Below are positions 19,865 to 39,872 of a DNA stretch of 64,000 nucleotides, piece by piece. The stretch lies in assembly GCA_016295355.1 (NCBI GenBank), contig JAEDLK010000005.1:1871-65870 (forward strand), given 5' to 3'. The DNA comes from Clostridiaceae bacterium. GTDB taxonomy: Bacteria > Bacillota > Clostridia > Oscillospirales > Acutalibacteraceae. A model generated the notes under the pieces. It did not search any database, was not told the DNA's origin, and was given only the letters and a program-made list of their open reading frames with translations. The translations under genes were made by a program, and so were the position numbers. The number at the start of each line of letters is the position of its first letter. Position 1 is the stretch's first letter.

Positions 19865-20181
19865 AGGCCATCCTTTCCTGCTGTGTATCGGTCGGTTATA
19901 CGCCCATTGTTCCCCCATATTCTTTGACCGCCGCGACGACATAACCGTTAAACGGCCAAAAGGCACCGATGGAAAGCAATAAGCAATTTTTTCCTTTGTA
20001 TATTATATCTTATTTTTCCTCTCTAATCAATATTTTCCTTAAATATTCTTGCACAGGCTGTCAAAACACGATATAATAAGAATACCAATTGTGTTAAAGC
20101 CCTGCCAAACGATCTGTTTTGACGCCGTCGCCGTTCAGGGGGCTGTTCTTTATCTCACTATTTCTATCAAGGAGGATGTTC

Positions 20182-21306
20182 ATGGCCAGTGTTCGTATTC
20201 TGCATACCGCCGATTGGCACATCGGCGCCGAAAACGCCTATTTAGGCCCTCTTGCCGCTGCAAGACAGGCTGAAATGCTAACCACGGTTCGCCGTATCAC
20301 CGATCTGTGTACCGCACAAAGTGTCAATCTGTTATTGATTGCCGGTGATTTATTCGACAACAACCACATCGATGCTTCCTTGATCGGCGAGGTCTTTGCA
20401 CTGCTTGGAAGTCTCATCGACACCAAGGTGGTGATCGCCGCCGGTAACCACGATCCGCTGTCGGCCGATTCACCCTATCAATCGGCCCTTTTGCCCAAAA
20501 ACTGCTTTGTTTTGGGAACCAAGGACAGTGTGATTGCCTTTCCGGAATTTCATTGTCGGGTTTACGGAAAATCCTTTGCCGGTGTTTACTGCGCCGGCAA
20601 GCCGTCCTTCTCATTAAAACCGCCGGCTGATGATATGATCAACCTTATGGTATTACACGGAGAAACACGCAGTGATTACAGCTCCTGTTATTGCTCAATC
20701 ACCAAGGAATTCATTGCCTCGTGCGGCATGGATTATCTGGCACTTGGGCATATTCATCAGCGTTCTGATATTCACAAAATTGAAAATACCTTCTTTTCCT
20801 ACAGCGGTTGTCCCGAAGGGCAAGGATACGATGAAAGCGGTATCAAGGGTGTCTACATGGGTGAGGTGGAAAAGGGCTTTCATTCGTTGGCCTTTGTGCC
20901 CATTGCCGGGCGCACCCACCACTGCCTATCGGTACCGCTTACCGAAGAAGAGGATCCCTATACCACCGTTATGGAAGCCATCAAGGCCACAGGCGAGCAT
21001 TATACCGATGATTTGTTCCGTATCACCCTGACCGGCGCTTTGCCCGACGGCAAACGGGTGCACCCCGATCGGCTGGCCGCCCAACTGGCAAGTGAAGTAT
21101 ATCATCTGCGCCTGCGGGACGAAACCACCGTCAAGGCTGATTGGCAGGCACTGGCCAATGAGCCGTCCCTGAAAGGGCTGTTTGTGAAGGCCTGCTTGGA
21201 AAAAGCGTCCGCCACCCACGACGAGCAAGAGAAAAAATCCATTTTATATGCGTTGGAATTGGGACTGAGAAGTTTTGAGGGGAAGGTGAAGTACGGTGAA
21301 GATTAA
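20182..21306 (+). CDS. Metallophosphoesterase, SbcD/YhaO-like exonuclease
   Basis: Motifs HTADWHIG, AGDLFD, GNHD and GHIH. AAGGAGG RBS before the ATG at 20182. Confidence 0.75.
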   Translation: MASVRILHTADWHIGAENAYLGPLAAARQAEMLTTVRRITDLCTAQSVNLLLIAGDLFDNNHIDASLIGEVFALLGSLIDTKVVIAAGNHDPLSADSPYQSALLPKNCFVLGTKDSVIAFPEFHCRVYGKSFAGVYCAGKPSFSLKPPADDMINLMVLHGETRSDYSSCYCSITKEFIASCGMDYLALGHIHQRSDIHKIENTFFSYSGCPEGQGYDESGIKGVYMGEVEKGFHSLAFVPIAGRTHHCLSVPLTEEEDPYTTVMEAIKATGEHYTDDLFRITLTGALPDGKRVHPDRLAAQLASEVYHLRLRDETTVKADWQALANEPSLKGLFVKACLEKASATHDEQEKKSILYALELGLRSFEGKVKYGED

Positions 21307-23665
21307 AGAACTGTATTTAGCCTCGTTCGGCAAATTCAAGGACTATCGGCTGACGTTAGAGGACGGCTTCAATCTGCTGTACGGCCATAATGAGGACGGA
21401 AAAACCACCCTGATGGCCTTTATTCGCATGATGTTTTACGGCTCTGCCACCCGTGGCTCCGATTTATCCAAAAATCCTCGTAAGCGGTATGCTCCGTGGG
21501 ATGGTTCTCCCATGGCCGGCGCCATTACCTTCTCGTCGGACGGCACCGACTACCGTTTAGAACGGGTCTTTTTGGCCTCAAACGCCACCGATCAAATCAC
21601 CTTAACCGATTTATCCACCGGTGAAGCCGAACGCCGCACAGCCGATATCGGCCAGCGTTTTTTCGGCTTGAGTGCCGCCGCCTTTGATCGCTGTGCCTTT
21701 ATCGGACAATGCCTCATCGGCGACAAGGACGAGCAGGCAGAAGGCGAATTGAATGCCCGTCTGTCCAGCCTGGCACAAACCGGCGACGAGGGTGTTTCGG
21801 TGCAAAAGCTCCTGTCTAACCTAACCGACGGCAAGGAAGAACTGATGTCCAAGGGCGGTAACAAAGGACGCTACGACAAGGGCGCTAAGCAACTGGAAGC
21901 CTTAAAAGAAGAGCTGCTGTTTTCCCGTAAGGCGGTTGAAAACAAACAGGCGTTGGCCATTCAAATCGACAATAAGAAGAATCGGTTGCTTTCGGCACAA
22001 AAAGATTGCGACCGCTATGAAGCGCAGCTTCGTGCCGCCGAGGACTACCGGAATCTAAAAAAATTAGGAGACTTTGTTGAGGCCTCTGCCATGCTGTCCT
22101 CCTTAGAAAGAAAGCTGAAAAAGACCGACGGGACACTCATCAGCGCCGCTGATTTAAGCCGTGCCGATCAACTGACCATGGACGGCAAATTGGCAGCCAC
22201 CCGTTTGGAGGATGCGACCCAACAGTTATCGCTTTGCAAGGAGACGTTAACAACAACGCAAGCCTCTTTGACGGATCATTCGTGCGACGGTGAAAAGGCC
22301 GCCATTAAGGCCTTACGAGATGAGGTCGAGCGGCTGAGCGATGAGGAAAACCGCCTGACACAGCAGGCCGAGGCCTTATCCCGTCAAATTGATGAAGCCA
22401 ACGCACAAAAAAGCAAGATACGTCCGATGTTTGTCATTCTCACGCTGTGCGGTCTTTTGGCTACGGCTGCCGGCTTCGTCACCGATGCCTTACGCCCTCT
22501 GCCATGGCTTGTGGGAGGCTCTTTGACGCTCATAGGTTTACTGCTGACCGTCTTGTGTAAAAGGAAGCCGAAGGGTGCCGGTAAAGAATTGACCGACCAA
22601 TTGGCATCCATACAGAATCGCTTGGGTGAATTAAAGCCGGATTTGGCCGCTAAAACCACCGATTTGACCGCTAAAACCGCCGCTCTTTCGGTGAGAGAAG
22701 AAACCGACGGGCAAAACAAGGCACGGCTTGACGAGCTAATCCGTCGTGAGGCCGCCCTAACAAAAACGGTCGAGGAACTGACCGCCACCGTGACAGGGTC
22801 TTTGCAGGGATTAAGCGAATTGTTCCCGAATGTCACACCGCAGACCTCTTTTTCGGGCATTGAAATCATACTGCATGCCTATCATGAGAGTCTGCAAAAG
22901 TGGGAAACTGTCACGGCTCGACTGAATTTGTTAAAGCACGATTTAGGCGAGGACATCACCGTGGAGACCGCCAAGGCCATGCAACGCCAAATCAGCCGCG
23001 AGGAAAACGCCATCGGCGATCCGAAAACCATCCGGGAGCTATTGGCGTTCAAGCGTCGCGAATTGGCCGAAACCGAAAAGGATTTGGCTTTGGATGAGGC
23101 TCGCTTGGCTACCGACTTTAAGAATCTACGCCACCCCACCGAATTAGAGCATGAGATTGAACGGTTGTTGGCTGTTTTGGCGCGTCAAAAGGCCTTTTGC
23201 GAGGCAAGTGAGCTGGCCTGTTCACTTTTAAGCGATGCCGCCGCCAAGCTCCGGCAGAATTACGGCGAACGATTGGAAAAGCGTGCCGGTGAAATTTTCT
23301 CGGCACTGACCGGCGGTGTTTATCACGCCTTACACATTTCCCGCAGCTTTGACTTGCAGGTTGAAAAGACCGGCGTCTTCGGCCGTAAGGAATGGCAGTA
23401 TCTGTCAACCGGCGCCGCCGACCAAGCCTATTTTGCTCTGCGGTTGGCCGTATCTGAGCTTTTGTGCGAAGGTAAGGAGACTCTGCCGTTGCTCTTGGAT
23501 GACGCCTTTTGTCAGTATGACGACACCCGTCAGGCGGTTGCACTTGCCTTTTTGGAGGACTATGCCAAACAGAATCAAATTTTGTTCTTTACCTGCCACA
23601 AACTGCCGACCGAACGTATCGCCGTCCCAATCTGTCCACCAATAAACGAGCCATCGTTTGAGTAG
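21296..23665 (+). CDS. SMC/Rad50-like AAA ATPase (YhaN/SbcC-like) with a central TM hairpin
   Basis: Walker A GHNEDGKTT, long coiled-coil regions, C-terminal LLLDDAF. Two hydrophobic helices fall at about nt 22418..22570. GTG start overlaps the upstream gene. Confidence 0.7.
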   Translation: MKIKELYLASFGKFKDYRLTLEDGFNLLYGHNEDGKTTLMAFIRMMFYGSATRGSDLSKNPRKRYAPWDGSPMAGAITFSSDGTDYRLERVFLASNATDQITLTDLSTGEAERRTADIGQRFFGLSAAAFDRCAFIGQCLIGDKDEQAEGELNARLSSLAQTGDEGVSVQKLLSNLTDGKEELMSKGGNKGRYDKGAKQLEALKEELLFSRKAVENKQALAIQIDNKKNRLLSAQKDCDRYEAQLRAAEDYRNLKKLGDFVEASAMLSSLERKLKKTDGTLISAADLSRADQLTMDGKLAATRLEDATQQLSLCKETLTTTQASLTDHSCDGEKAAIKALRDEVERLSDEENRLTQQAEALSRQIDEANAQKSKIRPMFVILTLCGLLATAAGFVTDALRPLPWLVGGSLTLIGLLLTVLCKRKPKGAGKELTDQLASIQNRLGELKPDLAAKTTDLTAKTAALSVREETDGQNKARLDELIRREAALTKTVEELTATVTGSLQGLSELFPNVTPQTSFSGIEIILHAYHESLQKWETVTARLNLLKHDLGEDITVETAKAMQRQISREENAIGDPKTIRELLAFKRRELAETEKDLALDEARLATDFKNLRHPTELEHEIERLLAVLARQKAFCEASELACSLLSDAAAKLRQNYGERLEKRAGEIFSALTGGVYHALHISRSFDLQVEKTGVFGRKEWQYLSTGAADQAYFALRLAVSELLCEGKETLPLLLDDAFCQYDDTRQAVALAFLEDYAKQNQILFFTCHKLPTERIAVPICPPINEPSFE

Positions 23666-28736: not shown

Positions 28737-30137
28737 ATGAAACAATTTATGGACAAAAACTTTTTGCTCGACACCGAAACAGCTGTTCATCTGTATCACA
28801 CCTATGCCGCAAAACAGCCGATTATTGACTACCATTGCCACATCAGCCCCGAAGAAATCGCCAAAGACCGTCATTTTGATAATATCACCCAGCTTTGGTT
28901 GGGCGGTGACCATTACAAATGGCGTCTGATTCGCAGCAACGGCGTGCCGGAGGAGGAAATCACCGGGGACGCAACCGACCGTATTAAATTTCAATGCTTC
29001 GCCGAAACGCTGGAAAAGTGTGTCGGTAACCCGATGTATCATTGGACCCATTTGGAGTTACAACGCTATTTCGGCTACTATGGCGTTTTATCGGGTGAAA
29101 CCGCCGAAGAAGTTTGGAATCTTTGCAATGAAAAGTTAAAGAACATGTCGGTGCGTCAGCTCATTTTAAGCTCCAATGTTCGCTTTATCGGCACCACGGA
29201 TGACCCCATTGACACCTTAGAGTGGCACAAAGCACTGGCCGAGGAAACCGACTTCCCGGTCACGGTTGCTCCCTCCTTTCGACCCGACAAGGCTATCAAT
29301 ATTGATAAGCCGGGCTTTGTCGACTACATGGAACGCCTAAGCGAGACTGTCGGCTATCCGATCGACAGCGTGGCCGATGTTTGCCGTGCTATATCCGATC
29401 GATTGGATTATTTCAAGGCCGTCGGTTGCCGTGCATCAGATCACGGCTTGGATTTTGTCCCCTTCTTAACTGCTGACGAGCATGAGCTTGACAAGATTTT
29501 CAAGACGGCCATGAAGGGTAAGACCATTACCGCGCAAGAGGCCGAACAGTACAAGACCGCCCTTTTGTTACACTGCGCCAAAGAGTACGCCGAGAAGGAC
29601 ATTGTGATGCAGCTTCATTACAATGCCCTGCGTAACCCCAATAGCCGGATGTTTGAAAAACTGGGTCCCGATACCGGTTACGATGTCATCAATTCGGTCT
29701 TCTGCGGCGAAAAAATCTGTGCGTTTCTTGACACACTCGAACAGGAGCATCACCTGCCCAAGACCGTTTTGTACTCGTTGAATCCCTCTGACAACGCCAT
29801 GCTGGACACCATTTTGGGTGCTTTCCAGGGCACCGAGGCAGCAGGAAAGCTACAGCACGGCTCGGCTTGGTGGTTTAATGACCACAAAGCCGGCATGGAA
29901 GCACAGCTCACCTCACTGGCCAACCTGTCGGTACTGGGCAACTTCATCGGTATGTTGACCGATTCCCGGAGCTTCCTGTCCTACACCCGCCATGAGTATT
30001 TCCGACGGATTCTGTGTATGTTTATCGGCCGATTGGTGGAAAACGGTGAATATCCGAATGACGAAAAAGCTCTGCAAAAACTCGTGGAGGGCATCTGCTA
30101 CAAAAACGCAGCCGCTTATTTCGCCATTGAAGGCTGA
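28737..30137 (+). CDS. uxaC: Glucuronate isomerase
   Basis: The N-terminus MKQFMDKNFLLDTETAVHLYH...IIDYHCHI aligns with UxaC. About 466 aa. Confidence 0.9.
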   Translation: MKQFMDKNFLLDTETAVHLYHTYAAKQPIIDYHCHISPEEIAKDRHFDNITQLWLGGDHYKWRLIRSNGVPEEEITGDATDRIKFQCFAETLEKCVGNPMYHWTHLELQRYFGYYGVLSGETAEEVWNLCNEKLKNMSVRQLILSSNVRFIGTTDDPIDTLEWHKALAEETDFPVTVAPSFRPDKAINIDKPGFVDYMERLSETVGYPIDSVADVCRAISDRLDYFKAVGCRASDHGLDFVPFLTADEHELDKIFKTAMKGKTITAQEAEQYKTALLLHCAKEYAEKDIVMQLHYNALRNPNSRMFEKLGPDTGYDVINSVFCGEKICAFLDTLEQEHHLPKTVLYSLNPSDNAMLDTILGAFQGTEAAGKLQHGSAWWFNDHKAGMEAQLTSLANLSVLGNFIGMLTDSRSFLSYTRHEYFRRILCMFIGRLVENGEYPNDEKALQKLVEGICYKNAAAYFAIEG

Positions 30138-30202
30138 CCTTTCTTTAGATACTGTCTAATTCTGCCGCATACTAAAACCGTTTTCCAAAATAATTCTATC
30201 AA

Positions 30203-30244
30203 CAAACCGTCCCTGATGATGAACATTGAGGGACGGTTTGTTTG
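30203..30244 (+). terminator. Terminator of uxaC
   Basis: CAAACCGTCCCT-14 nt-AGGGACGGTTTG followed by TTTG. Confidence 0.65.
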
Positions 30245-30308
30245 TACTTGACAGGTATCATGCCGAATCAAGAGGACAAGCCGTCGCTTATGATCCTCCC
30301 ACATCCAT

Positions 30309-30349
30309 AAAGAAAGCGACCGAAGCAAATTCTTCGGTCGCTTTTTTTA
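30309..30349. terminator. Bidirectional terminator after the immR-immA-membrane protein operon
   Basis: AGCGACCGAAG-6 nt-CTTCGGTCGCT with T-runs on both strands. Confidence 0.7.
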
Positions 30350-30361
30350 TGATGAATTAAC

Positions 30362-31207
30362 TTACAAAACACCTTTAATGAAATGACGGTCAACCCAAAT
30401 AGAGGCGATGATTAAAGCGGCAGCCGTAGATCCGGTGGCCAGTGCATTCATCGGGGATGTAGCCAAAACGGTTAGGGCCGAAAGGCCGTTGAGAACACCA
30501 AAGGCCATTAACCAGCCCTTACCCGCTTTCAATTTATCAATCTGTTCGTAATTGTTCAACACACTGGTACACATGGTTTTCATCATGCGATGAATGGAAT
30601 GATACCCGAAAATGTTGAAAAGGGTTAATATCACCGCCATGAAAAGAAAAACAAAACCGATAGCTACCGAAACCATCGAACCGCCTAACACGAATAGGCC
30701 CGACAACTCTTCTTCGTAGTGTTGTAGCGCTGTCTCAAAGAGCCCGCCGAGAAGAGAGGGCACTGCAAAAAAGATGATGCCAAAAAGTGCCAAAAAGCCG
30801 ACCGCTATCCATAAAAGGATACACAATGCCTTCATAGTTCCGCTAACGCCCTTCATACCGGTCAAATTAACGGTGTTCTTTTGGGCACCGGCAAAGATCA
30901 TCCACAAAAAGATCACAAACAAAAGGCTGATGACATTCAACGAAAGAGATTTGTCGACAGCACTGCTTAAAATGCTTAAACCCAATGCGGTACTCATCAA
31001 AATGCAAACAGCCATGAACAGCTTATCGCGAAAGGCCGATGCAAACCGTCCAACCACACCGATGGATTGCGGCTCTAAACCGGCGGTATCGCACGAGCAG
31101 GCCTGCGCGTCGGCAGTCGGCTCCCCCGGTGCCGAAACGGTTGCCCCGCAGATGGGACAGAACTTACTTTCGTCAGGTATTTCTTTACCACAATTTGAAC
31201 AATACAT
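30362..31207 (-). CDS. Zinc-ribbon domain membrane protein (unknown function)
   Basis: MYCSNCGKEIPDESKFCPICG zinc ribbon followed by about 6 TM helices. AAGGGG RBS before the ATG at 31207. Confidence 0.6.
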   Translation of the reverse strand: MYCSNCGKEIPDESKFCPICGATVSAPGEPTADAQACSCDTAGLEPQSIGVVGRFASAFRDKLFMAVCILMSTALGLSILSSAVDKSLSLNVISLLFVIFLWMIFAGAQKNTVNLTGMKGVSGTMKALCILLWIAVGFLALFGIIFFAVPSLLGGLFETALQHYEEELSGLFVLGGSMVSVAIGFVFLFMAVILTLFNIFGYHSIHRMMKTMCTSVLNNYEQIDKLKAGKGWLMAFGVLNGLSALTVLATSPMNALATGSTAAALIIASIWVDRHFIKGVL

Positions 31208-31221
31208 ACCAAAACCCCTTT

Positions 31222-31620
31222 TCAATTTTTATAATAAAGCAATGCTTTATACATAAACTCATTGGTCACACCGAAATAATCCGACAAAGCTGTCAAATCG
31301 CTACGACCGCTCTTGATGGCCATTTTTAATTCATCCAACGGCACCAGTTGGCCAATGGCCCAACTTTCGGCCTTGCGCTCCTGTTTAGCCCGATTGTCCA
31401 ATGTTGAATAGCAGTTATAGAAGGCCTCGGTCTGACAATGACCCAGCTCGTGCGCCAAGCACACCTTCTCCTCACTGGATGAGCATAGGACAGACGGATC
31501 AATGGCTACATAATACTTGCCGCCCAGCTTAAGAGTTAACGCTTTATTTTCCGGCAGAGGAAAACCCTCCACCGCAATCTGGTTATCCTCAGCCATCTTA
31601 TACAACCGATCTGTTTTCAT
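31222..31620 (-). CDS. ImmA/IrrE-family (COG2856) metallopeptidase
   Basis: HEXXH motif (CLAHELGHCQ). About 130 aa. Immediately downstream of, and overlapping, the XRE gene. An alternative start exists at 31596. Confidence 0.8.
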   Translation of the reverse strand: MKTDRLYKMAEDNQIAVEGFPLPENKALTLKLGGKYYVAIDPSVLCSSSEEKVCLAHELGHCQTEAFYNCYSTLDNRAKQERKAESWAIGQLVPLDELKMAIKSGRSDLTALSDYFGVTNEFMYKALLYYKN

Positions 31621-31936
31621 GTTCCCGTTCCTTTATATATTCAGCGTACCGCTTAACCTCATCCCACATGGCGTCGGTCACTTCACCATCGCCCCCAAAC
31701 AGGGCCGCCTTCAGTTGATCCTGGCTGATGCTGTCATGCCCTTCCATTAGGTAATCAACGCTGACGGAAAAATAAGCGGCGATTTTAGAAAGCACGGCAG
31801 CCGACAACGATTTCACCCGGCCGGTCTTAAAATCCGACAAAGTCGCCCGAGGAATCGAGCAATCCCGACAAAGAGCTGTTATGTTGATGCCTGCGTCCCG
31901 ACACAATGACTCAATGCGACCGTAAATACTGTCCAT
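31598..31936 (-). CDS. XRE-family HTH repressor (ImmR/DdrO-like)
   Basis: HTH_3 pattern (ITALCRDCSIPRATLSDFKTGRVKSLSAAVLSKIAAYFSVSVDYL). Paired with ImmA. Confidence 0.85.
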   Translation of the reverse strand: MDSIYGRIESLCRDAGINITALCRDCSIPRATLSDFKTGRVKSLSAAVLSKIAAYFSVSVDYLMEGHDSISQDQLKAALFGGDGEVTDAMWDEVKRYAEYIKEREHENRSVV

Positions 31937-31994
31937 TTTTCTGTACTCCCACTCCGTTTTTCCAAAAAATTAAGAATTTTTTGCACAAACTCCA

Positions 31995-32023
31995 TTGACA
32001 ATTACGAATTTTCGTAATATAAT
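31995..32023 (+). promoter_or_regulatory. Perfect-consensus sigma-A promoter of the Zn-ribbon/sigma-like/polymerase operon
   Basis: TTGACA (31995..32000), 17-nt spacer, TATAAT (32018..32023). Confidence 0.7.
32001..32018 (+). promoter_or_regulatory. Operator O1 (perfect 8-2-8 palindrome)
   Basis: ATTACGAA-TT-TTCGTAAT fills the promoter spacer exactly. Confidence 0.6.
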
Positions 32024-32031
32024 AGACTTGC

Positions 32032-32049
32032 GTTACGAAATCATGTAAT
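32032..32049 (+). promoter_or_regulatory. Operator O2 (imperfect copy)
   Basis: GTTACGAA-AT-CATGTAAT, 31 nt downstream of the O1 start. Confidence 0.45.
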
Positions 32050-32072
32050 TTTTCCACTTGCAAGTTCATTGT

Positions 32073-32090
32073 ATTACATCATTCCGTAAT
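32073..32090 (+). promoter_or_regulatory. Operator O3 (imperfect copy)
   Basis: ATTACATC-AT-TCCGTAAT, 41 nt downstream of the O2 start. Confidence 0.45.
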
Positions 32091-32124
32091 TGTCAAGAAG
32101 TATTTATAAAACGGAGGAAGTCAC

Positions 32125-32499
32125 TTGTACATTTGCAGGAATTGTCAAAAATCATTCACCTTTGCCCGTATTGTCTTTACAGATGCGATCGACAGTCCGG
32201 GTGTTCGAAAGAAGGTGATGTTATGTCCGTTTTGCGACAGTAGTGATTTTTACGAAAAGAAAGGTGGCTACTGTCGTTGCTGCGGCACTAAAATCAGTTT
32301 GCCGGGTCGGGAATATTGCTCTTCCACCTGTCAAAGAGCCGGCGAAAAACTATGGGAACGACAAAGACAGCGTACCATCGCCCGTCTGACCGACCCGATA
32401 TTGAACGCCGTTGCAGAGGTTGATGCTTATAATCAGCGCACCGGACAAAAACTCAGCTACGGACAATACTTCGCCTTAAAGGGGGCCGGTCATATATGA
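32125..32499 (+). CDS. Cys-rich double zinc-ribbon protein (unknown function)
   Basis: CRNC...CPFC, then CRCCG...CSSTC. TTG start 6 nt after GGAGGA. The C-terminal LSYGQYFALKG tail is reminiscent of small phage/ICE proteins (from memory). Confidence 0.55.
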   Translation: MYICRNCQKSFTFARIVFTDAIDSPGVRKKVMLCPFCDSSDFYEKKGGYCRCCGTKISLPGREYCSSTCQRAGEKLWERQRQRTIARLTDPILNAVAEVDAYNQRTGQKLSYGQYFALKGAGHI

Positions 32500-32816
32500 T
32501 GAATGTTGACGAAAAGCGCCACTACTTAAACCGTTATCCTCTGTTAATCGCCCGTATTGACCGCTTGACCAAGCAAAGTCGCATCAACGCCGATCGAAAA
32601 TCCTTTTACTTTGACGAAATGGCCAAAACAAAACAATTGCGGGATAGCATTGAGGATGCCATTTACGGTATCGGAGACGAACGGGAGCGTGAAATTTTAG
32701 CCCAAAAATATCTGTGCGGCCGCAGCTTAGAGGAAACCGCCGAACTGCTCAATTACAGCAAACGGCAGATTGAACGGCTGCATTTACAGGCGTTAGAGCA
32801 TCTGTGCCCCACCTAA
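32496..32816 (+). CDS. Sigma-70 region-4-like HTH protein (DUF1492/RinA-like)
   Basis: 106 aa. C-terminal EREILAQKYLCGRSLEETAELLNYSKRQIERLHLQAL resembles sigma region 4. ATGA overlap with the upstream ORF. Confidence 0.6.
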   Translation: MMNVDEKRHYLNRYPLLIARIDRLTKQSRINADRKSFYFDEMAKTKQLRDSIEDAIYGIGDEREREILAQKYLCGRSLEETAELLNYSKRQIERLHLQALEHLCPT

Positions 32817-32889
32817 TCCATAAAGGACGGAAACACCATCCAATAAAACCGGCAGGGCAGACTCTGCCGCACACAAACAGGAGTTTATC

Positions 32890-34122
32890 ATGGAAAGAAC
32901 CATTTTGCATTGCGACATGAACAACTTTTTCGCCTCGGTCAGCCTACTATACAACCAAACCCTCATCGGCGAGCCTGTGGCGGTCTGCGGCGATAAAGAA
33001 AACCGTCACGGTATCATCCTGGCCAAAAACGAACTGGCCAAGCAATATGGTGTAAAAACCGCCGAACCGATTTTTGAAGCACAGAGAAAATGTCCGGGGC
33101 TGTACTTACTTCCCCCTCTTTATGAAGAATACGAACGCTTTTCCAAGGCTGCCAAAGCCATTTATCTGCGGTACACCGACCTTGTGGAATCTTTCGGCAT
33201 GGATGAATGTTGGTTGGATGTCACCGGCAGCCGCCTGCTGTTCGGGGACGGTGAAACCATCGCCCGTCGCATCCGTCAGGATATGATTAACGAACTGGGC
33301 GTGAGCGTTTCTGTGGGAATCAGCTTTAATAAGGTCTTTGCCAAATTGGGATCCGATATGAAAAAGCCCAACGGGCAGACGCTCATTACCCGTGAAAACT
33401 TCAAGCAGGTTGTTTGGCCGTTGCCGGTGGAGGATTTGCTGTTTGTCGGCAAGCGAACGGCCGAACAGCTTCGGCGCATCGGCGTGTTAACCATCGGTGA
33501 TTTGGCCATTTGTCCCACCGACACCCTGCAACGGCTTTTTGGAAAAAACGGAATGGCTTTGCATCGGTACGCCTGGGGTAATGACACCGGTACAGTCCAT
33601 AACCATCAATTGACACAACTGCCTAAAAGCATTGGAAGAAGCGAAACCACCGCCGAGGATTTGACCGATGAGGAGGCGGTTTGGCAGGCCTTGCTCTCGT
33701 TCGGTGAGGAGATCGCCCACCATCTGTATCGTTTAGGTCTTTCGGCCGGTGGCATTCAGCTCTGCGTGCGATTTCCCGACTTAAAAACCAAGGAGTATTC
33801 CATGCGATTAAACGAGCCGACGGCGGTGGGGCTTTCCCTGGCCAAAGCCGGCATGGAGCTATATCATCGCCATTCACCGGGAGTATGCCGTTCGGTCGGC
33901 CTTCGTGCCACCCTGCTTTGCTCCAATACCGACGCCGTGCAAACCGGCCTTTTTGACAATGAAGCAGAGCAAAAAAAAGAGTGTTTAGGACAGGAGATCA
34001 TTCGTCTGAAGGAACGTTACGGGACTCATATCATTGACCGCGGCACCGTTTGGCAACGCCAAACACGGCGTTCACCGTCCGGCTCTCTGTCGTTTGGCCG
34101 CGGACCGTTCAAGCGCTCGTAA
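32890..34122 (+). CDS. Y-family DNA polymerase (DinB/UmuC-like)
   Basis: Motifs HCDMNNFFASV, MDECWLDVTG and SVGISFNKVFAKLGSDMKKPNG. Confidence 0.9.
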   Translation: MERTILHCDMNNFFASVSLLYNQTLIGEPVAVCGDKENRHGIILAKNELAKQYGVKTAEPIFEAQRKCPGLYLLPPLYEEYERFSKAAKAIYLRYTDLVESFGMDECWLDVTGSRLLFGDGETIARRIRQDMINELGVSVSVGISFNKVFAKLGSDMKKPNGQTLITRENFKQVVWPLPVEDLLFVGKRTAEQLRRIGVLTIGDLAICPTDTLQRLFGKNGMALHRYAWGNDTGTVHNHQLTQLPKSIGRSETTAEDLTDEEAVWQALLSFGEEIAHHLYRLGLSAGGIQLCVRFPDLKTKEYSMRLNEPTAVGLSLAKAGMELYHRHSPGVCRSVGLRATLLCSNTDAVQTGLFDNEAEQKKECLGQEIIRLKERYGTHIIDRGTVWQRQTRRSPSGSLSFGRGPFKRS

Positions 34123-34256
34123 AAAAGCCCCTTGGGCGGTATAATACAGAGATAGGCTGGCTTTTTCCTACACGAAGGGCATTACACCGCACAGCACAAT
34201 CCATCCCTATGCCGTTCCGCTCTTATCGGGATAATTCTTGTATTGATTTCATATAA

Positions 34257-34285
34257 ATAACCGACAGAAACCTGTCGGTTATTTT
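34257..34285 (+). terminator. Terminator after the polymerase operon
   Basis: TAACCGACAG-AAAC-CTGTCGGTTA followed by TTTTT. Confidence 0.7.
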
Positions 34286-34309
34286 TCATCATGATAAGGA
34301 GTGACCTTC

Positions 34310-34729
34310 ATGGTACAAGACGAGACTATGCTGGACCAAGAGCAAGCCGGTCCTTTGGACTCCTTCGGAGAGCTGATTGTGGTACTAACTCATTCAAAAG
34401 GCAATTATCCCCTGCCGGGTGGGGTGGTAACGGTTTACACACAAAGCGGTCAAACCATTGCTTCAGCCATAACCGACCAAAGCGGTCGCACCGCTCCCTT
34501 ACGGTTGGCGACACCCGCACGATCGGCCTCGCTGACCCCCGGCGGCACCCGGAATCAAGTGGCCGCTTACTATACGGTTCAAGCCTCAGCAGAGGATTAT
34601 CTCACCGCTGTCATCCCCAACATTCCTGTTTTTTCGGGCGTTTCCTCCATTCAAAACTTGGATCTTGTATATGGCGAATCAGTTGAAACGACCCTGCCGA
34701 TACAAAGCAGCACAGAGCCCACCCCTTAG
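34310..34729 (+). CDS. Carboxypeptidase-regulatory-like domain protein
   Basis: Beta-rich segment GGVVTVYTQSGQTIASAITDQSGRT. AAGGAG 8 nt before the ATG at 34310. Weak assignment. Confidence 0.45.
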   Translation: MVQDETMLDQEQAGPLDSFGELIVVLTHSKGNYPLPGGVVTVYTQSGQTIASAITDQSGRTAPLRLATPARSASLTPGGTRNQVAAYYTVQASAEDYLTAVIPNIPVFSGVSSIQNLDLVYGESVETTLPIQSSTEPTP

Positions 34730-34742
34730 AAAGGAGCTGCCT

Positions 34743-36101
34743 ATGCCTGTCATCACCCCGGTTATCCCCACCAATATCACGGTTCATTTGGGAGCGCCCG
34801 ATGCTCCTGCCGAGAATATCACGGTACCCTACACAACCTATCTGAAAAATGTGGCCTCGGGTGAAATCTATCCGACCTGGCCTGAGGAATCCTTAAAGGC
34901 CAATATTTACGCCATCAACAATTTTGCTCTTAATCGCATTTACACCGAATGGTACCCATCCAAAGGCTACCCGTTCGACATCACTTCCACCACAGCCTAT
35001 GACCAAAGCTTTGCCAAGAACCGAGAGGTTTTTGAAAACATCTCACAGCTCGTTGATGAGCAGTTTAACAACTATATTGTGCGCCAAGGCGAGGTGCAAC
35101 CGCTGTTTACACCGTTCTGTAACGGCACAACCTCAACCTGTCCCGGTCTTTCTCAATGGGGCACGGTGACGCTGGCTGATCAGGGAAAGACTGCCTTTGA
35201 AATTCTGCAGTATTACTACGGTGACAATATCACACCGGTTTCCAATGCGCCGGTGCAAAACATAGAGCCGTCCTATCCGGGAAGACCCTTGCGTATAGGC
35301 GATGCCGAGAATGCCGTGGCGGTCCTGCAAAACGAGCTGAACCGTATTCGGCAAAATTTTCCGGCCATTCCCCTTATTCCGGATGTTTTCGGCATTTTTG
35401 ACGATGCAACCGAGTCGGCCGTGCGTTCCTTTCAGCAAATTTTCAATTTGCCGGTTAACGGAACAGTGGATAAGGCCACCTGGTATAGAATTAAAGAAGT
35501 GTATAACGGTGTGAAACGGCTGGGAGAATTAAGCAGTGAGGGGTTGACCTACGCCGAAGCCACTTTGCTATATCCGGAATTGCTGGAGCAGGGCATGAGC
35601 GGGCCGGAGATCGGCACGATTCAGTATTTATTAAATGTGATTGCCTATTTTAATCCCAACATCAATCTATTTCCCATTTCCTATGTTTTTGACACCGATA
35701 CACTCAATGCCGTTAATTTGTTTCAACAGGAATACGGTTTACCCGTGACCGGAAAGGTCGATCAGCCGACCTATGATTTAATTGTCAAAACTTATCGGGA
35801 TATTTTGCGTTCTCAACCGCCCAACTACACCGGCGGGCTGGCTAAGCTATACCCCGGTTATTTTCTGACACCCGGTATGGTGAACACCGATGTCAGAGAT
35901 TTGCAAACCTACCTATCGGTGATCGCCGAAAACAACCCGGAGGTGCCGCCGGTGGCGGTAGACGGCGTCTACGGCCCGGAGACAAGAGACGCCGTTTATG
36001 TGATCCAACGCCTTTACGGACTTCCTTTAACCGGCACTGTCGGCCCACTGACTTGGCGGGCCATTGCCGACGCTTATGATGCTATCATCGTCGGTCAATG
36101 A
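34743..36101 (+). CDS. Peptidoglycan-binding protein (3x PG_binding_1 repeats, SpoIID-like N-terminal region)
   Basis: Three repeats ending in ...FQQIFNLPVNGTVDKATW, ...FQQEYGLPVTGKVDQPTY and ...IQRLYGLPLTGTVGPLTW. N-terminal YLKNVASGEIYPTWPEESLKANIYA. AAGGAG RBS. Confidence 0.7.
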   Translation: MPVITPVIPTNITVHLGAPDAPAENITVPYTTYLKNVASGEIYPTWPEESLKANIYAINNFALNRIYTEWYPSKGYPFDITSTTAYDQSFAKNREVFENISQLVDEQFNNYIVRQGEVQPLFTPFCNGTTSTCPGLSQWGTVTLADQGKTAFEILQYYYGDNITPVSNAPVQNIEPSYPGRPLRIGDAENAVAVLQNELNRIRQNFPAIPLIPDVFGIFDDATESAVRSFQQIFNLPVNGTVDKATWYRIKEVYNGVKRLGELSSEGLTYAEATLLYPELLEQGMSGPEIGTIQYLLNVIAYFNPNINLFPISYVFDTDTLNAVNLFQQEYGLPVTGKVDQPTYDLIVKTYRDILRSQPPNYTGGLAKLYPGYFLTPGMVNTDVRDLQTYLSVIAENNPEVPPVAVDGVYGPETRDAVYVIQRLYGLPLTGTVGPLTWRAIADAYDAIIVGQ

Positions 36102-37156
36102 TCGCTCATATGGCGCCCTGTCAGATACAAAGCAATCGGCAAGAATAGTTCAAAGGCCAACAGAATTCCCGTCGTAGCATCGGTTAACAGAAGAGCCCGA
36201 GAAACGGGCCATACCACCGTGATGAGTGTTACAACGGCCAACACGGTGCAGGGGATCCATCGCCGCCAACCGAACAAGGCATTGGCGGCATCGGCTGACA
36301 CTGTCAGAATGACCGACGCCTTCAGAAAGGAACAAACAAAATACAGATAATATGTCCAACCGTCCATACGGGAATAAGCGTTGCCCAGCGTGATACTGCC
36401 TGTAGCCGCCGCATACGGAAAGGACACACGGTTCAAGACACCGCTCCCGAGTAAAAACAGCACCTGCAACAGGCAAATCAAAAACACACCGCCGCCGCAC
36501 AGCAATCCCCGTGTTTGACAGAAAAAGGCCGATTTTCTGTCTTGAAAACCAATATATAAAATCGGAAAAATCAGTTGACCAAAGCTATGCACATAAAAGG
36601 AAAGGCCCTGCCGGAAAGTTCCTGAGGCACTGATGCCCAGTCCCGATACAAACAGTTCGCTATCCATATCCGGAAGGGACAACAGGAGCATACCCACCGC
36701 AATCAGCACCACCGCCAACAGTGAAACAAGACAAAAAATATCGGTCATTTGGCGGTGCATTTGGGCAAAAAACGCCGTAAGCGCCAAAAACAGCACGGCA
36801 ATCACCACCGTGTGGGTTTGCGGAAGACGCACTTCATCCACCAAACGGATATAATCAAGACAACAGTTGGCATAGCAAATAAAGCAAAACGCCAACAGCA
36901 ACACGGTTAAGAGTTTTGCCCAAACCCGATGCTTGCAATCCGCCAGCATACGAGTGCCGAAGGCCGGTGTACAGCTCGGCAGACGAGCCGTCACAACACA
37001 AAGAAGCAAACTGATAAGAAGGCAAGCCAGAAAACCTGTCAAACCCTCGTTTTGTCCCTGTCCTTTGGGAAAGGAAATAATTAAATTACCCAAAATAAAA
37101 AGGCCGATTAACGCCACCGGGTGATGAAAAACGCCGGCCGATGTTTCTCTCTTCAC
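36095..37156 (-). CDS. Spore germination protein, GerAB/GerKB family (permease-like)
   Basis: About 10 TM segments. Last gene of a gerA-type operon. GTG start overlaps the gerAC-like stop. Confidence 0.75.
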   Translation of the reverse strand: MKRETSAGVFHHPVALIGLFILGNLIISFPKGQGQNEGLTGFLACLLISLLLCVVTARLPSCTPAFGTRMLADCKHRVWAKLLTVLLLAFCFICYANCCLDYIRLVDEVRLPQTHTVVIAVLFLALTAFFAQMHRQMTDIFCLVSLLAVVLIAVGMLLLSLPDMDSELFVSGLGISASGTFRQGLSFYVHSFGQLIFPILYIGFQDRKSAFFCQTRGLLCGGGVFLICLLQVLFLLGSGVLNRVSFPYAAATGSITLGNAYSRMDGWTYYLYFVCSFLKASVILTVSADAANALFGWRRWIPCTVLAVVTLITVVWPVSRALLLTDATTGILLAFELFLPIALYLTGRHMSDH

Positions 37157-38061
37157 AACTGCTCCTTCCAGGATAAAGACACCTGCGTGACCGATCCCCC
37201 TACAAAGGGTGCTATCGTCGGGTCACTGACCAATTCCTTGATTTGTGTTTCCATCGCATACCGAACCGTGTCCTCCATGATTTCTCTTGAGCGAACTTCT
37301 AAACAAAGCACCCCATCACGCAAGCTCTTTCGCTTGATGCGACCAAAGTGAATTCTCCGGCCGTCCACCAAAAGTAGGCTATCATATAGCTCCCCTCTCG
37401 TACCGGCCAACAACTGTGATTGCTGCAGAGGTAGTACCCGTTGGCATTTACCTCTTTCGAACAGGCCGACGCCGTCAATTTGATACTGCTCGTTTTCTTT
37501 TCTTAAATGAAACAGCAGATACCGCCCGTCCTGTTGCCAAGCATTGACCACTCGCGGCAGGCTGCCGGCCTTTTTCATGCCGAAGGTTTCCTTGCCGTGC
37601 CGGACAAGCCGGGACAATTCCTCGCCGGTGGTTGTGCCGGTTTGCTCATTGCCGGAAATCAAAAGCGCCGGATCCTCGCAGCATAAAAGATCTATCGACG
37701 GCGACAGATCATATCCCGAAAAACAGAAATCCAAAACCTGTTGCATACTGCCTTGATCCATGCCTGCCCCCAACAAGATAACCGGGCACTGGCTGAGCAT
37801 CATACGGCCATAGGTGCTGTTTTGCAAATCGGACAAAGCGGCTTCTAGGGTCACGCCGCGCCCCTTGGCTACCAAAGCATGATAAGATAGTTCTCCGCCT
37901 ACATCCACATCCAATGTTTCGGCCGTAAGACAAATCCCGCTTTCATCCCGATTGACGCCCAATGCCGTAATGATGCGTCGGTCCTCCGGTTCACAGTAAT
38001 CACTGCAACCGCATAAAAGCAGCATTAAAAGCACCATCACTATCAGCACAAACCGTTTCAT
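37153..38061 (-). CDS. Ger(x)C-family spore germination lipoprotein
   Basis: MKRFVLIVMVLLMLLLCGC lipobox. The ATG at 38061 follows directly after the gerAA-like stop. Confidence 0.8.
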   Translation of the reverse strand: MKRFVLIVMVLLMLLLCGCSDYCEPEDRRIITALGVNRDESGICLTAETLDVDVGGELSYHALVAKGRGVTLEAALSDLQNSTYGRMMLSQCPVILLGAGMDQGSMQQVLDFCFSGYDLSPSIDLLCCEDPALLISGNEQTGTTTGEELSRLVRHGKETFGMKKAGSLPRVVNAWQQDGRYLLFHLRKENEQYQIDGVGLFERGKCQRVLPLQQSQLLAGTRGELYDSLLLVDGRRIHFGRIKRKSLRDGVLCLEVRSREIMEDTVRYAMETQIKELVSDPTIAPFVGGSVTQVSLSWKEQL

Positions 38062-38063
38062 CT

Positions 38064-39551
38064 TTATCGCTTCCTTCTCTGCCGTACCCGATTCCGGCTC
38101 AAGGAAAACGGACGCAAAATCATCCGATTCCAAGGTGAGCGAATCAGTGTGTCTTTTAAGCTCTGCGGGGTAAAACGCAGTCCGGGCTCCACATAGCCGA
38201 CCTCAAAGGAATGCAAAGCATACAAATGAATGTGCCACAATGTAAAACCTAAAAAGAAGCCGAACAGTCCCAAAAGCGATGCCAGCACCAAAAGCATAAG
38301 TCTTAAATAAAAGATCGCTCCTTTTAATCGGGGTAACATCAAGCCGGCAATCCCGCACAGGGCGGTGATGATCAAGACCGGTGCGCTGACAAGCCGCGCC
38401 TCCACGGCCGCCTGTCCCACCACCAGACCGCCGACAATGCTCATGGCATTACCGACGCTTTGTTGCATTCGTATGCCGGTTTCTTTTAGAATTTCAAAAA
38501 CCAAGATTAGTAACAGAATTTCGGCAAACGAGGAAAACGGCACCCCGTTACGGGCGGCGGCAATGCTGATAAAAAACGAGGTAGGCAACAGGGCCGGGTG
38601 AAAGACCGTAACGGCCAAATACAATGCCGGCAAACAGACCGCCAAATAAAAACACAGATATCTGAGAACCCGTCCTATACCGGCCACTAAATAGTGTGTA
38701 TAATAATCATCATCGGATTGAAAATTCTCGGCGAACAGATACGGCATCGTCAGCACAACGGGTGTACCGTCCACCATGATCGCCACACGTCCCTCTAACA
38801 GTCTGGCGGCCACAATATCAGGTCGTTCGGTACTGCCCATGGTCTTAAACAGCGACCATCGGTGATCACTGATTAGCTCATTGATGTAATGGCTGTCTAA
38901 AATGCCGTCAATATCAATGCTATCTAAGCGCTTGCGAATCAATTCCACCGTTTCCTTCCTCACCACCGATTCCAAATAGCAAATAAAGATTTTTGTGTCG
39001 CTTTTTCGCCCGATGGAACGGCCTTCGATGCACAAATCCGGGGTGGGCAACTTGCGGCGTAACATGGCCGCATTGAACATCAGTGCCTCATCAAAGCCCT
39101 CTCTCGGCCCCTGTTGCACCCGTTCATCCCCCGGCTCACTGATGCCCCGTGTGCGCCAGCCCTTGGTGTTGATGACCAACGCACCAACACTGCCGTCTAA
39201 CAACAGAATGCTGTCGCCGTACAAAAGGCCCGTCAGCATCTCTTTAACATCTGTGACGATTTTGACTTCATTAGCACACAAAATCCGTCGAGCCACGCAG
39301 TCGGCCAACGGCTCATCGCCTCGGTCGGCCGAAGAAATCGTCAAGGGCTTAATCACGCCCTCGTTGATGATTTCAGCATTAACCATACCGTCAAAAAACA
39401 ACAGGCAACCGGCCACGCCCTTATACCGCAACACAAGCGGACGCTCACGGAACACGGCATCCTTTTCAAAAATGCGGCTGAACAAGGCTCGATCGGTTTC
39501 TAAACATCCGGTCAAATTGACCCCTGCAAAGCCGGCTAAATCTCGCTTCAT
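38064..39551 (-). CDS. Spore germination protein, GerAA/GerKA family
   Basis: LLEGRVAIMVDGTPVVLTMPYLFAENFQSDDDYY and a C-terminal TM region. Internal ATG at 39551 chosen; the track N-terminal extension looks non-coding. Confidence 0.85.
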   Translation of the reverse strand: MKRDLAGFAGVNLTGCLETDRALFSRIFEKDAVFRERPLVLRYKGVAGCLLFFDGMVNAEIINEGVIKPLTISSADRGDEPLADCVARRILCANEVKIVTDVKEMLTGLLYGDSILLLDGSVGALVINTKGWRTRGISEPGDERVQQGPREGFDEALMFNAAMLRRKLPTPDLCIEGRSIGRKSDTKIFICYLESVVRKETVELIRKRLDSIDIDGILDSHYINELISDHRWSLFKTMGSTERPDIVAARLLEGRVAIMVDGTPVVLTMPYLFAENFQSDDDYYTHYLVAGIGRVLRYLCFYLAVCLPALYLAVTVFHPALLPTSFFISIAAARNGVPFSSFAEILLLILVFEILKETGIRMQQSVGNAMSIVGGLVVGQAAVEARLVSAPVLIITALCGIAGLMLPRLKGAIFYLRLMLLVLASLLGLFGFFLGFTLWHIHLYALHSFEVGYVEPGLRFTPQSLKDTLIRSPWNRMILRPFSLSRNRVRQRRKR

Positions 39552-39872
39552 ACAATCCCTCTTCTCATTCTCCTTTAGTATGACAACCACGGGAATGATT
39601 ATGCGAAGAGCAGATGAAATCGGCCGTCTGTCGCCGGCAAAAACAGCGATCTTTATGACAACGATGATCAATATCCGAACAAAAAAAGCGTTGCTACAAG
39701 CCGACTGAATCGTCTTGTGCACTGGCAAATGATTGGTTATTTGACTGTGCTCTAGATTCATGGCCATGGATATAGTCAAATGATCTTTGAAAAATTGTGT
39801 CAAATCTTTGATTTAGGGTCAAACTATCAAAGTTTTTCGTTCTTTCGACTGACCACAACCTCAATCATTGCC

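Follow-up and report, generated by a model that had tools for sequence, protein, structure and literature searches.

Switches in which a repressor of the XRE family is cut by a peptidase of the M78 (COG2856) family are already established in principle, as in ImmR/ImmA, DdrO/IrrE and CapH/CapP. Here, we analyzed such a pair in a stretch of 64,000 nucleotides of contig JAEDLK010000005.1 from a Clostridiaceae bacterium (the window). A putative XRE repressor and an ImmA-like peptidase are encoded divergently from an operon for a cysteine-rich double zinc-ribbon protein (Cys), a small protein with sigma-70 region 4 (Sig4) and a Y-family DNA polymerase. We lean slightly towards reading this locus as a chromosomally fixed, phage-derived switch, in which XRE would repress the Cys-Sig4-polymerase operon and ImmA would cleave XRE on a damage-linked signal, upon which the operon would be expressed.

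Among known systems, ImmR/ImmA, CapH/CapP and rumAB under SetR and LexA come closest to this locus. As in the locus described here, ImmR/ImmA of the integrative and conjugative element (ICE) ICEBs1 and the phi105 repressor/ImmA pair combine an XRE-type repressor with a small adjacent M78/COG2856 peptidase without a GAF domain, have several operators in a bidirectional control region and are of phage or ICE origin. In ImmR, the cut by ImmA falls after a Phe, at F95-M96, within the linker joining two C-terminal helices (PMC8960796); our repressor likewise has a short two-helix C-terminal tail. In contrast, the module in the window is not on a mobile element, would control a polymerase operon and not genes for excision and transfer, has promoters placed face-to-face and is only weakly similar in sequence (BLASTP, 4e-4). 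The ICEBs1 promoters are arranged back-to-back.

CapH/CapP systems are damage-responsive, their repressor and peptidase genes lie upstream of the operon under control and are read from the other strand, and CapP cuts CapH at F82-R83 in its C-terminal domain (bioRxiv 10.1101/2022.04.27.489752). The window pair has the same layout of helix-turn-helix (HTH) repressor and M78 peptidase next to a chromosomal operon, and both proteins match the corresponding PADLOC profiles (capH, 1.2e-5; capP, 1.8e-5). However, CapP is ~288 amino acids (aa) long, with an HTH and a GAF domain that form a groove for single-stranded DNA (ssDNA) and often with a cysteine switch, whereas the peptidase in the window has 132 aa; the ssDNA-sensing groove of both CapP and IrrE runs between the peptidase domain and the GAF domain (bioRxiv 10.64898/2026.05.16.725639). 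The presumed cargo also differs, being a translesion polymerase and not an anti-phage defence operon; translesion polymerases are not among the CapH/CapP cargos in that paper. In DdrO/IrrE, cleavage of an XRE repressor by a COG2856 peptidase likewise induces DNA-repair genes independently of LexA, and the DdrO HTH domain was the best match of the XRE family among Protein Data Bank (PDB) profiles (2e-3). Unlike the single-domain peptidase and the operator-type sites found here, which are local within 64 kb, IrrE has three domains and the system serves a dispersed regulon through the radiation/desiccation response motif (RDRM). Moreover, the two genes of Deinococcus are not known to form a divergent cassette together with their cargo.

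From the side of the polymerase, rumAB (polV-R391 of the SXT/R391 ICEs) is also a Y-family polymerase operon under a mobile-element-type repressor. It is under dual control with LexA, and its repressor SetR is a self-cleaving protein of the S24 type activated by RecA. LexA boxes in promoters orthologous to ours would give the same dual control. The differences are that an XRE/M78 pair takes the place of SetR, and that rumAB has the UmuD-like RumA and lies on an intact ICE in Gammaproteobacteria. Repression of rumAB is exerted by the cI-like SetR and the Cro-like CroS of the element (PMC8460599). The LexA-type SOS cassettes umuDC, yolD-uvrX and streptococcal hdiR-umuC differ in that the window locus has no LexA box. 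In 2013, Aravind, Anand and Iyer noted a gene-neighbourhood link of DUF955 (now Peptidase_M78) to DinB/ImuB-C and predicted an M78-type zincin in the SOS-related control of translesion polymerases (PMC3765255). Those ImuB-C/DinB contexts differ from the present one in that no XRE partner, operators or Cys/Sig4 proteins were described (PMC3765255), and our literature search found no experimental follow-up. In Ca. Heliusvirales phages, whose hosts include Acutalibacteraceae and Oscillospiraceae, a related polymerase lies beside an XRE-like/metalloprotease switch; however, these are complete phage genomes without Cys and Sig4 before the polymerase and with a Sig4-like gene in the late region. Finally, the LtrA activators resemble Sig4 in being small proteins with sigma region 4 as the only recognisable domain (PMC3753634). 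Sig4 differs in that it is chromosomal, lies before a polymerase and always follows its zinc-ribbon partner; the position upstream of terS/terL is met only by distant phage relatives of Sig4.

The layout noted in a preliminary description of this DNA has precedents in the DUF955-DinB link, the CapH/CapP layout and the Heliusvirales switch-polymerase arrangement. Although the module would not surprise specialists in principle, the unknown Cys/Sig4 pair is of interest. In our literature search, no paper turned up on the cassette, on its operators, on Cys and Sig4 as partners or on the arrangement in Heliusvirales; the published description of these phages is silent on the polymerase and on the switch region.

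Conservation of the five-gene module

All six open reading frames (ORFs) named in the preliminary description were present in the ORF list of the window (Table 1). Five of them form the conserved module, in which xre and then immA are read leftward and cys, sig4 and the polymerase gene rightward. A gene-neighbourhood survey, proposed with the preliminary description, recovered this same five-gene order in dozens of independent genomes, with the membrane protein excluded, so the arrangement is not due to chance. The scan of one genome per species gave 29 loci, all from Acutalibacteraceae, Oscillospiraceae or Clostridia gut metagenome-assembled genomes (MAGs); this number is a lower bound, since the scan was pattern-limited and missed relatives that surfaced later. 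As observed, the divergent ImmA-XRE and Cys-Sig4 pairs were found in every scanned locus with enough sequence, ImmA adjoined XRE, mostly with an overlap, in ~30 distinct loci, and the polymerase directly followed Sig4 in 22 distinct loci. In one Acutalibacteraceae MAG (L014, 8731-10641), an opposite-strand gene of 636 aa splits Sig4 from the polymerase. Relatives of the polymerase at 54-57% identity outnumbered the loci found through Cys, and the contexts of three of these (L046-L048) were read.

Within the window, the xre and immA genes overlap by 23 nt, and the stop of cys and the start of sig4 overlap by 4 nt; the latter suggests translational coupling and, possibly, a complex of the two proteins. 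The left flank is constant in one genus, consisting of htpG, a cyclic-nucleotide (cNMP)-binding regulator and an ABC transporter, and consists of an aminotransferase or a flavin reductase in other lineages and of uxaC and the membrane protein in the window. Median pairwise dN/dS was 0.13 for XRE, 0.19 for ImmA, 0.12 for Cys, 0.19 for Sig4 and 0.12 for the polymerase; dS was close to saturation, which makes these values rough, yet all are far below 1. Intact ORFs, purifying selection and conservation together indicate that the module is a vertically kept chromosomal unit and not debris.

Anatomy of the control region

Next, we analyzed the 188 bp between xre and cys. The promoter scan gave a perfect rightward promoter, P(+), with TTGACA and TATAAT separated by 17 nt (12/12), and a leftward one, P(-), with 11/12 positions. 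These promoters face each other, and the predicted transcripts overlap by ~30 nt. An 18-bp palindrome, ATTAC-N8-GTAAT, occurs three times within ~90 bp (O1 to O3), and a 37-nt inverted repeat spans both promoters. Searching the 64 kb for TTACG-N6-CGTAA with one mismatch returned three sites, all in the control region, and the exact pattern of O1, with up to three mismatches, occurred once. Thus, the search for an XRE regulon yielded no further operator-type site elsewhere in the window.

From this anatomy, we infer a repressor-controlled bidirectional switch, in which XRE would silence the polymerase operon and control its own expression as well. The same promoter/operator architecture was common to ~30 distinct loci, nearly base for base, with the orthologue consensus TTGACAATTACGGAATTCCGTAATATAAT, a facing promoter and one to four palindromes. 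The expectation of palindromic putative operators inside the promoter of the polymerase operon therefore held, and their architecture is conserved across species.

Switch proteins

The ImmA-like protein scored 29.7 bits against Pfam PF06114 (cut-off, 22) and matched the phage metallo-protease family phrog_87 with 8e-22. Residues H57, E58 and H61 and the downstream E81..A84..W87A88..L92.P94 were invariant among 12-33 family members, a signature typical of M78. The match to the PADLOC CapP profile covered profile positions 27-137 of 242, which is the peptidase domain only; the protein consists of the catalytic domain, with no HTH or GAF sensor domain. The alignment of the ImmA family contained no conserved cysteine in the loop after HExxH. 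Since this is a peptidase of 132 aa with a catalytic domain only, the groove mechanism of CapP and IrrE is not directly transferable, and the situation is closer to that of ImmA.

XRE matched the CapH profile over residues 8-103, nearly its whole length, and in PDB profile searches its family matched the HTH domains of DdrO and SinR best (~2e-3). Those searches gave only such HTH-domain matches and minigluzincins, with no IrrE or CapP, and PDB sequence searches with XRE or ImmA alone gave nothing useful. The N-terminal HTH is followed by a highly conserved C-terminal stretch of 35 residues, LK.ALF80-G81G..VTD.MW.EV.RYA.YIKERE, where F80, G81 and G82 are invariant in the family alignment. A one-to-one BLASTP comparison (E, 4e-4) aligned ALF80-GGDGE of XRE with LLF95-M96NDGE of ImmR, residues 67-127 of the latter being what we take to be its sequence, in agreement with published numbering and primers. 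A comparison with PDB 7T8I covered ImmR residues 1-64, and one with published primers covered its C-terminus. By analogy with these repressors, cleavage of XRE is predicted after F80, between ALF and GG.

LexA boxes in orthologous promoters

The preliminary description had proposed that the cassette is LexA-independent. For the family, this was not supported, as a canonical LexA box was found in 15 distinct orthologous promoters, although this copy has none. In the genus with the htpG flank, the -10 element of the rightward promoter is directly followed by AGAACATGTGTTCG, or close variants of it, which is the canonical Firmicutes LexA box, GAAC-N4-GTTC. This pattern occurred 26 times in 709 kb of locus sequence, and 21 of the 26 lay exactly after that -10; the 21 boxes derive from the 15 distinct upstream sequences. 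In L046, a separate promoter, TTTACT-17-TATAAT, with the LexA box AGAACAAATGTTCA lies in the gap between Sig4 and the polymerase, before the polymerase gene; elsewhere among the relatives, the two genes overlap at this junction. The corresponding gap in the window has 73 nt, with a 6-bp GC-rich hairpin (CGGCAG...CTGCCG).

The search for GAAC-N4-GTTC found no LexA box in the control region or in the Sig4-polymerase gap of the window. The only occurrence elsewhere in the window (12113) was dismissed, as it lies inside a coding region. At the window locus, the extra operators O2 and O3 occupy the space of the LexA box. Absence of the box suggests LexA independence of this particular copy. In sister lineages, a LexA box together with predicted XRE operators amounts to dual control on the evidence of the promoter sequences, by which the orthologues belong to the LexA regulon and the family is part of the SOS world. 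The orthologous LexA boxes thus tie the operon to DNA damage independently, which supports the damage-related function guessed in the preliminary description. No S24-type ORF (LexA/UmuD-like) was found in the window or in ~700 kb of loci by phmmer with LexA and UmuD queries, and the cassette contained no S24 (UmuD, HdiR/LexA-like) or YolD Pfam domain, YolD not having been searched with a profile.

Cargo proteins

Cys contains eight invariant cysteines in two CxxC...CxxC/CxxxC ribbons, as shown by the family alignments; its C-terminal part is helical and ends in EV..YN.....SYGQYFALKG, with YGQY invariant. It matched no Pfam family beyond generic zinc-ribbon noise, and its AlphaFold2 (AF2) model (pLDDT 85) had no PDB fold match below E=1. 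The family is small, with 9 clusters in the 90% collection and, among 1.84 billion representatives, ~47 clusters at E<=1e-10 and ~120 more distant ones, mostly short.

In Sig4, a helical hairpin at the N-terminus precedes a sigma-70 region-4 HTH, with NYSKRQ.ER invariant in the recognition helix. The AF2 model (pLDDT 96.7) superposed through its C-terminal half on region 4 of SigB, SigD and SigE (Foldseek probability ~1.0), and among phage families the protein matched phrog_36 and phrog_248 (transcriptional regulator/activator).

The polymerase matched NCBIfam models of DNA polymerase IV with 1e-90, below their equivalog cut-offs. Compared with E. coli DinB (4IR1), D9 corresponds to D8 and D105/E106 to D103/E104, F13 is the steric gate, and N11 replaces D10. 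Because the catalytic residues and the steric-gate Phe are kept, the polymerase is predicted to be catalytically active. PADLOC gave no match for Cys, Sig4, the polymerase or the membrane protein, and for this reason a reading of the cargo as a defence system was rejected.

Phage relatives of the parts

In tblastn searches against GenBank phages, the best matches of the polymerase (44-46% identity) were from Ca. Heliusvirales phages, with Evtepia, Oscillospiraceae, Acutalibacteraceae and Clostridium as hosts. The polymerase gene of these phages comes first, or early, in a rightward operon. In PV036413 and PV036448, it is divergent from an XRE-type repressor that is followed by a HELGH or HELGH-like metallo-protease, and the repressor tails are of the type ...ALFAGGE..(S/T)..D.D. 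PV036413 also has facing TTGACA/TATAAT promoters and repeated operator words in the geometry of the window locus. A metallo-protease and a weakly XRE-like gene adjoin the polymerase in PV036429, a regulator and metallo-protease lie further upstream of it in PV036444 (Clostridium phage NatCom_42228), and a single repressor of 269 aa stands in place of the pair in PV036438. The phage repressors and proteases have no detectable homology to XRE and ImmA of the window.

Further genes were observed around these polymerases. In PV036413 (L041, 4463-8637) and PV036448 (L042, 1240-5192), a further XRE-like gene (124-131 aa) and a further, longer HExxH protein (HEGGH, 261-275 aa) come after the polymerase, such that two HTH/metalloprotease pairs flank the polymerase; a conserved gene of 90-101 aa comes after the first protease. 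In PV036444 (L044, 1739-3418), an annotated reverse-transcriptase gene lies between the repressor/metallo-protease pair and the polymerase.

Full-length relatives of XRE with 41-43% identity came from Flavonifractor phages and from scaffolds of fecal viromes; some CI-like repressors of staphylococci matched more weakly. Two fecal virome scaffolds with XRE/ImmA homologues (L060 and L061) are unverified, and L061 ends on the informative side. As for the other two proteins, two IMG/VR contigs encode a 76-aa Cys-like protein and then a Sig4-like protein just upstream of an HNH endonuclease, TerL and portal. With a single zinc ribbon and the ending ...LSYGQYVAKY, the 76-aa protein matches Cys residues 45-117. 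The late-region regulator of PV036413, in the same position before HNH, matched the Sig4 profile with 2e-9. This is where Ltr late activators sit, of which LtrA, defined by Sigma70_r4, activates terS promoters (PMC3753634). A first scan of 2.9 million viral contigs with the Cys alignment gave no match, and a scan with a broader pattern gave only the two partial, short-form relatives, with none of full length. Taken together, the cassette looks as if it was assembled from three phage-type parts, namely an immunity switch, a pair resembling late activators and a phage-type early polymerase.

Chromosomal setting

Within 12 kb of the block, to the left and to the right, are genes for SbcCD-like proteins, TrkAH, UxaC (glucuronate isomerase), a SpoIID-like protein, MgtE and TyrS, and a GerA operon. 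No integrase, conjugation or phage structural gene was found within 12 kb on either side, where all genes are of the housekeeping type, which agrees with the earlier statement that no mobile element is nearby. The base composition of the block is unremarkable (GC content, 0.485 against 0.49 for the window), and no Rfam element matched in 29000-36000. An SbcD/SbcC-like pair lies upstream of the block and a GerA-type spore germination operon directly downstream of it, and the host is therefore probably a spore-forming member of the Clostridia. A perfect 15-nt direct repeat, CAAAGCCGGCATGGA, for which ~0.01 occurrences would be expected by chance in 5 kb, was considered as an att pair and rejected, since its copies lie inside uxaC and the polymerase gene and not at the borders of the module.

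The zinc-ribbon membrane protein had been counted as a part of the module. It has four hydrophobic segments in a Kyte-Doolittle scan and is probably co-transcribed with ImmA in the lineage of the window. However, no homologue was detected in any related locus at 1e-5, its sequence cluster has four members, and the position after ImmA is taken in relatives by unrelated housekeeping genes. It is thus a lineage-specific passenger outside the conserved module.

On the other side, a tyrosine integrase, in either orientation, was observed directly after the polymerase in seven loci of the htpG-flank genus (L002, 13675-16597; L017, L022, L023, L025, L028 and L029). The L002 integrase has a Tn916-type Xis beside it. 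In the six other loci, the same set of gene clusters comes next, two of which have signal-peptidase-like and weak camelysin-like Pfam matches in L022. This pattern makes the 3' side of the module look like a hot spot for insertion.

Table 1. Features of the block and of its surroundings, with positions in the window
Feature	Position	Strand or placement	Description
Zinc-ribbon multi-pass membrane protein	30362-31207	-	281 aa from ATG; Zn_Ribbon_1, 1e-9
ImmA-like M78 peptidase	31222-31620	-	132 aa; Peptidase_M78, 6e-7; motif HELGH
XRE (putative repressor)	31598-31936	-	112 aa; Pfam HTH_26, 8e-11; HTH_3, 2e-5
Control region	31937-32124	188 bp, intergenic	two face-to-face promoters, three predicted operators
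P(+), -35	31995-32000	+	TTGACA
P(+), -10	32018-32023	+	TATAAT
O1 (putative operator)	32001-32018	fills the P(+) spacer	ATTAC-N8-GTAAT palindrome
O2 (putative operator)	32032-32049	between the start sites	ATTAC-N8-GTAAT palindrome
P(-), -10	32068-32073	-	
O3 (putative operator)	32073-32090	fills the P(-) spacer	ATTAC-N8-GTAAT palindrome
P(-), -35	32091-32096	-	
Cys (double zinc ribbon)	32125-32499	+	124 aa; first gene of the rightward operon
Sig4 (Sigma70_r4)	32496-32816	+	106 aa; Pfam, 1.5e-7
Y-family polymerase	32890-34122	+	410 aa; IMS, 2e-41; IMS_C, 4e-17; IMS_HHH_1; last gene of the operon
Hairpin	32850-32869	Sig4-polymerase gap	6 bp, GC-rich
15-nt direct repeat, first copy	29885-29899	in uxaC	
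15-nt direct repeat, second copy	33843-33857	in the polymerase gene	
SbcD/SbcC-like pair	20119-23665	~9 kb upstream of the block	nuclease-ATPase pair
GerA-type operon	36095-39803	directly downstream of the block	spore germination

Discussion

The mechanism that we favor would proceed as follows. A dimer of XRE would bind O1 to O3 and repress both the polymerase operon and its own xre-immA promoter, as the placement of the palindromes suggests. The co-translated, minimal M78 peptidase may then cleave the C-terminal tail of XRE after Phe80, as in the better-known pairs, which would remove or unfold the part of XRE used for oligomerisation, release the DNA and allow the rightward promoter to fire. 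The trigger would most likely be DNA damage. As the peptidase has no ssDNA-sensing domains, it probably needs a partner signal, RecA-dependent or other, as does ImmA of ICEBs1. The output would be a catalytically competent translesion polymerase together with a zinc-ribbon protein and an LtrA-like sigma-region-4 protein, the last two probably being a transcription factor pair that serves feed-forward, autoregulation or distant targets. Sister lineages appear to add LexA control at the same promoter.

Several observations weigh against this mechanism. We infer its steps of XRE binding to DNA, XRE cleavage and operon induction alike, the cleavage site relies partly on the presumed part of the ImmR sequence, and the dN/dS values are rough. 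ImmA is without the HTH/GAF domains through which CapP and IrrE sense ssDNA. Moreover, the association of the switch with the operon is not strict. L046 has Cys, Sig4 and the polymerase with an XRE of the same tail and the same operators, and no adjacent ImmA; L047 and L048 have the trio without XRE and ImmA, behind a different promoter and among housekeeping neighbours. Accordingly, the switch is dispensable for the operon. Conversely, nine distinct loci have ImmA, XRE, Cys and Sig4 without an adjacent polymerase, including a divergent clade with no polymerase nearby (L030, L031, L033, L035-L037, L039 and L040), which means that the polymerase may not be the primary target. In two of these, barstar-like and DUF6883 genes were seen after Sig4 (L033, 8810-9109; L030, 8731-9288), probably as unrelated neighbours. 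The claim of the preliminary description that the polymerase is placed under the XRE/ImmA switch thus stands as regards the divergent layout, and does not stand as an exclusive tie, the polymerase being linked more tightly to Cys and Sig4. Cys and Sig4 are the constant pair; the switch accompanies them in most but not all cases, and so does the polymerase.

These distributions bear on a second reading, in which the Cys-Sig4 pair is the real payload. An immunity switch would then govern an LtrA-like late activator and a zinc-ribbon partner acting elsewhere, and the polymerase would be an optional passenger, which the module acquired from phages or has in common with them. It would account for the polymerase-less loci, which keep the other four genes between housekeeping flanks, and it draws on the sigma region-4 fold of Sig4 with its invariant recognition helix, its matches to phrog_36 and phrog_248, and the short Cys-like and Sig4-like pairs upstream of HNH, TerL and portal in phage contigs, a position at which the Heliusvirales regulator also matches the Sig4 profile. 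LtrA (Sigma70_r4) proteins are, moreover, proven activators of late operons (PMC3753634). Distant Cys-Sig4 pairs at 34-38% identity to Cys were also found on metagenome contigs (L058, 6001-6695; L057), with no XRE, ImmA or polymerase beside them in the 6-kb flank of L058 or on the 2.3-kb contig L057. However, no candidate target promoter was found in a search limited to local sequence, Sig4 and the polymerase overlap or abut in most loci, and survival of the trio without XRE and ImmA argues for a functional tie to the polymerase. On balance, we consider a payload of this kind unlikely.

The persistence of Cys and Sig4 beside the polymerase in the absence of the switch suggests a tie to its expression or function. 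Going further, one might speculate, at a similarly low level of confidence, that Cys and Sig4 have so far escaped recognition as a pair of partner proteins for a UmuC/DinB-like polymerase lacking both UmuD and YolD. The three genes would then make up a self-contained mutagenesis module of gut Clostridia, whose sensor differs between lineages and is XRE/ImmA, LexA, both or none. In one version of this idea, a zinc-ribbon/sigma-region-4 complex would activate the operon, and the complex might also anchor the polymerase on RNA polymerase or on damaged DNA.

A third reading takes the operon to be an ordinary translesion operon, of the LexA/SOS type or constitutive, with XRE as a local autoregulated repressor, ImmA inert or directed at another substrate, and no proteolytic derepression. 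The LexA boxes after the -10 in 15 orthologous upstream sequences and before the polymerase gene of L046, the relatives without ImmA or without both regulators, and the peptidase without a sensor domain are all compatible with it. Nevertheless, the window locus has no LexA box, ImmA stands beside XRE in ~30 distinct loci with HExxH and the further Glu intact and dN/dS at 0.19, and the XRE tail, in which Phe-Gly-Gly is invariant, is similar to the region that is cut in ImmR and CapH; we therefore regard this reading as somewhat less probable still than the one with Cys-Sig4 as payload. That we are dealing with the decaying remains of a prophage or ICE, without host function, as the phage relatives of every part and the integrases downstream of the polymerase in several relatives might suggest, is very improbable, given intact ORFs under purifying selection, at least 29 species genomes with the module, the fixed left flank (htpG, cNMP-binding regulator, ABC transporter) in one genus and other housekeeping flanks elsewhere, no full-length Cys relative in two scans of 2.9 million viral contigs, and a window with no composition anomaly, integrase or structural genes.

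A chromosomal switch of the kind that we favor would be of interest for the following reasons. Error-prone polymerases are drivers of mutagenesis under stress and of antibiotic resistance evolution, and polymerase control outside the LexA/UmuD systems is poorly known, especially in uncultured gut Clostridia. The locus offers a compact, testable case of a phage-type protease/repressor switch that was apparently domesticated to gate a translesion polymerase, and nature supplies variants with dual XRE and LexA control, with XRE only or with neither. The polymerase is always accompanied by two conserved proteins, Cys and Sig4. In Heliusvirales, a widespread order of gut phages, a Y-family polymerase would be the first gene released by the lysis-lysogeny switch.

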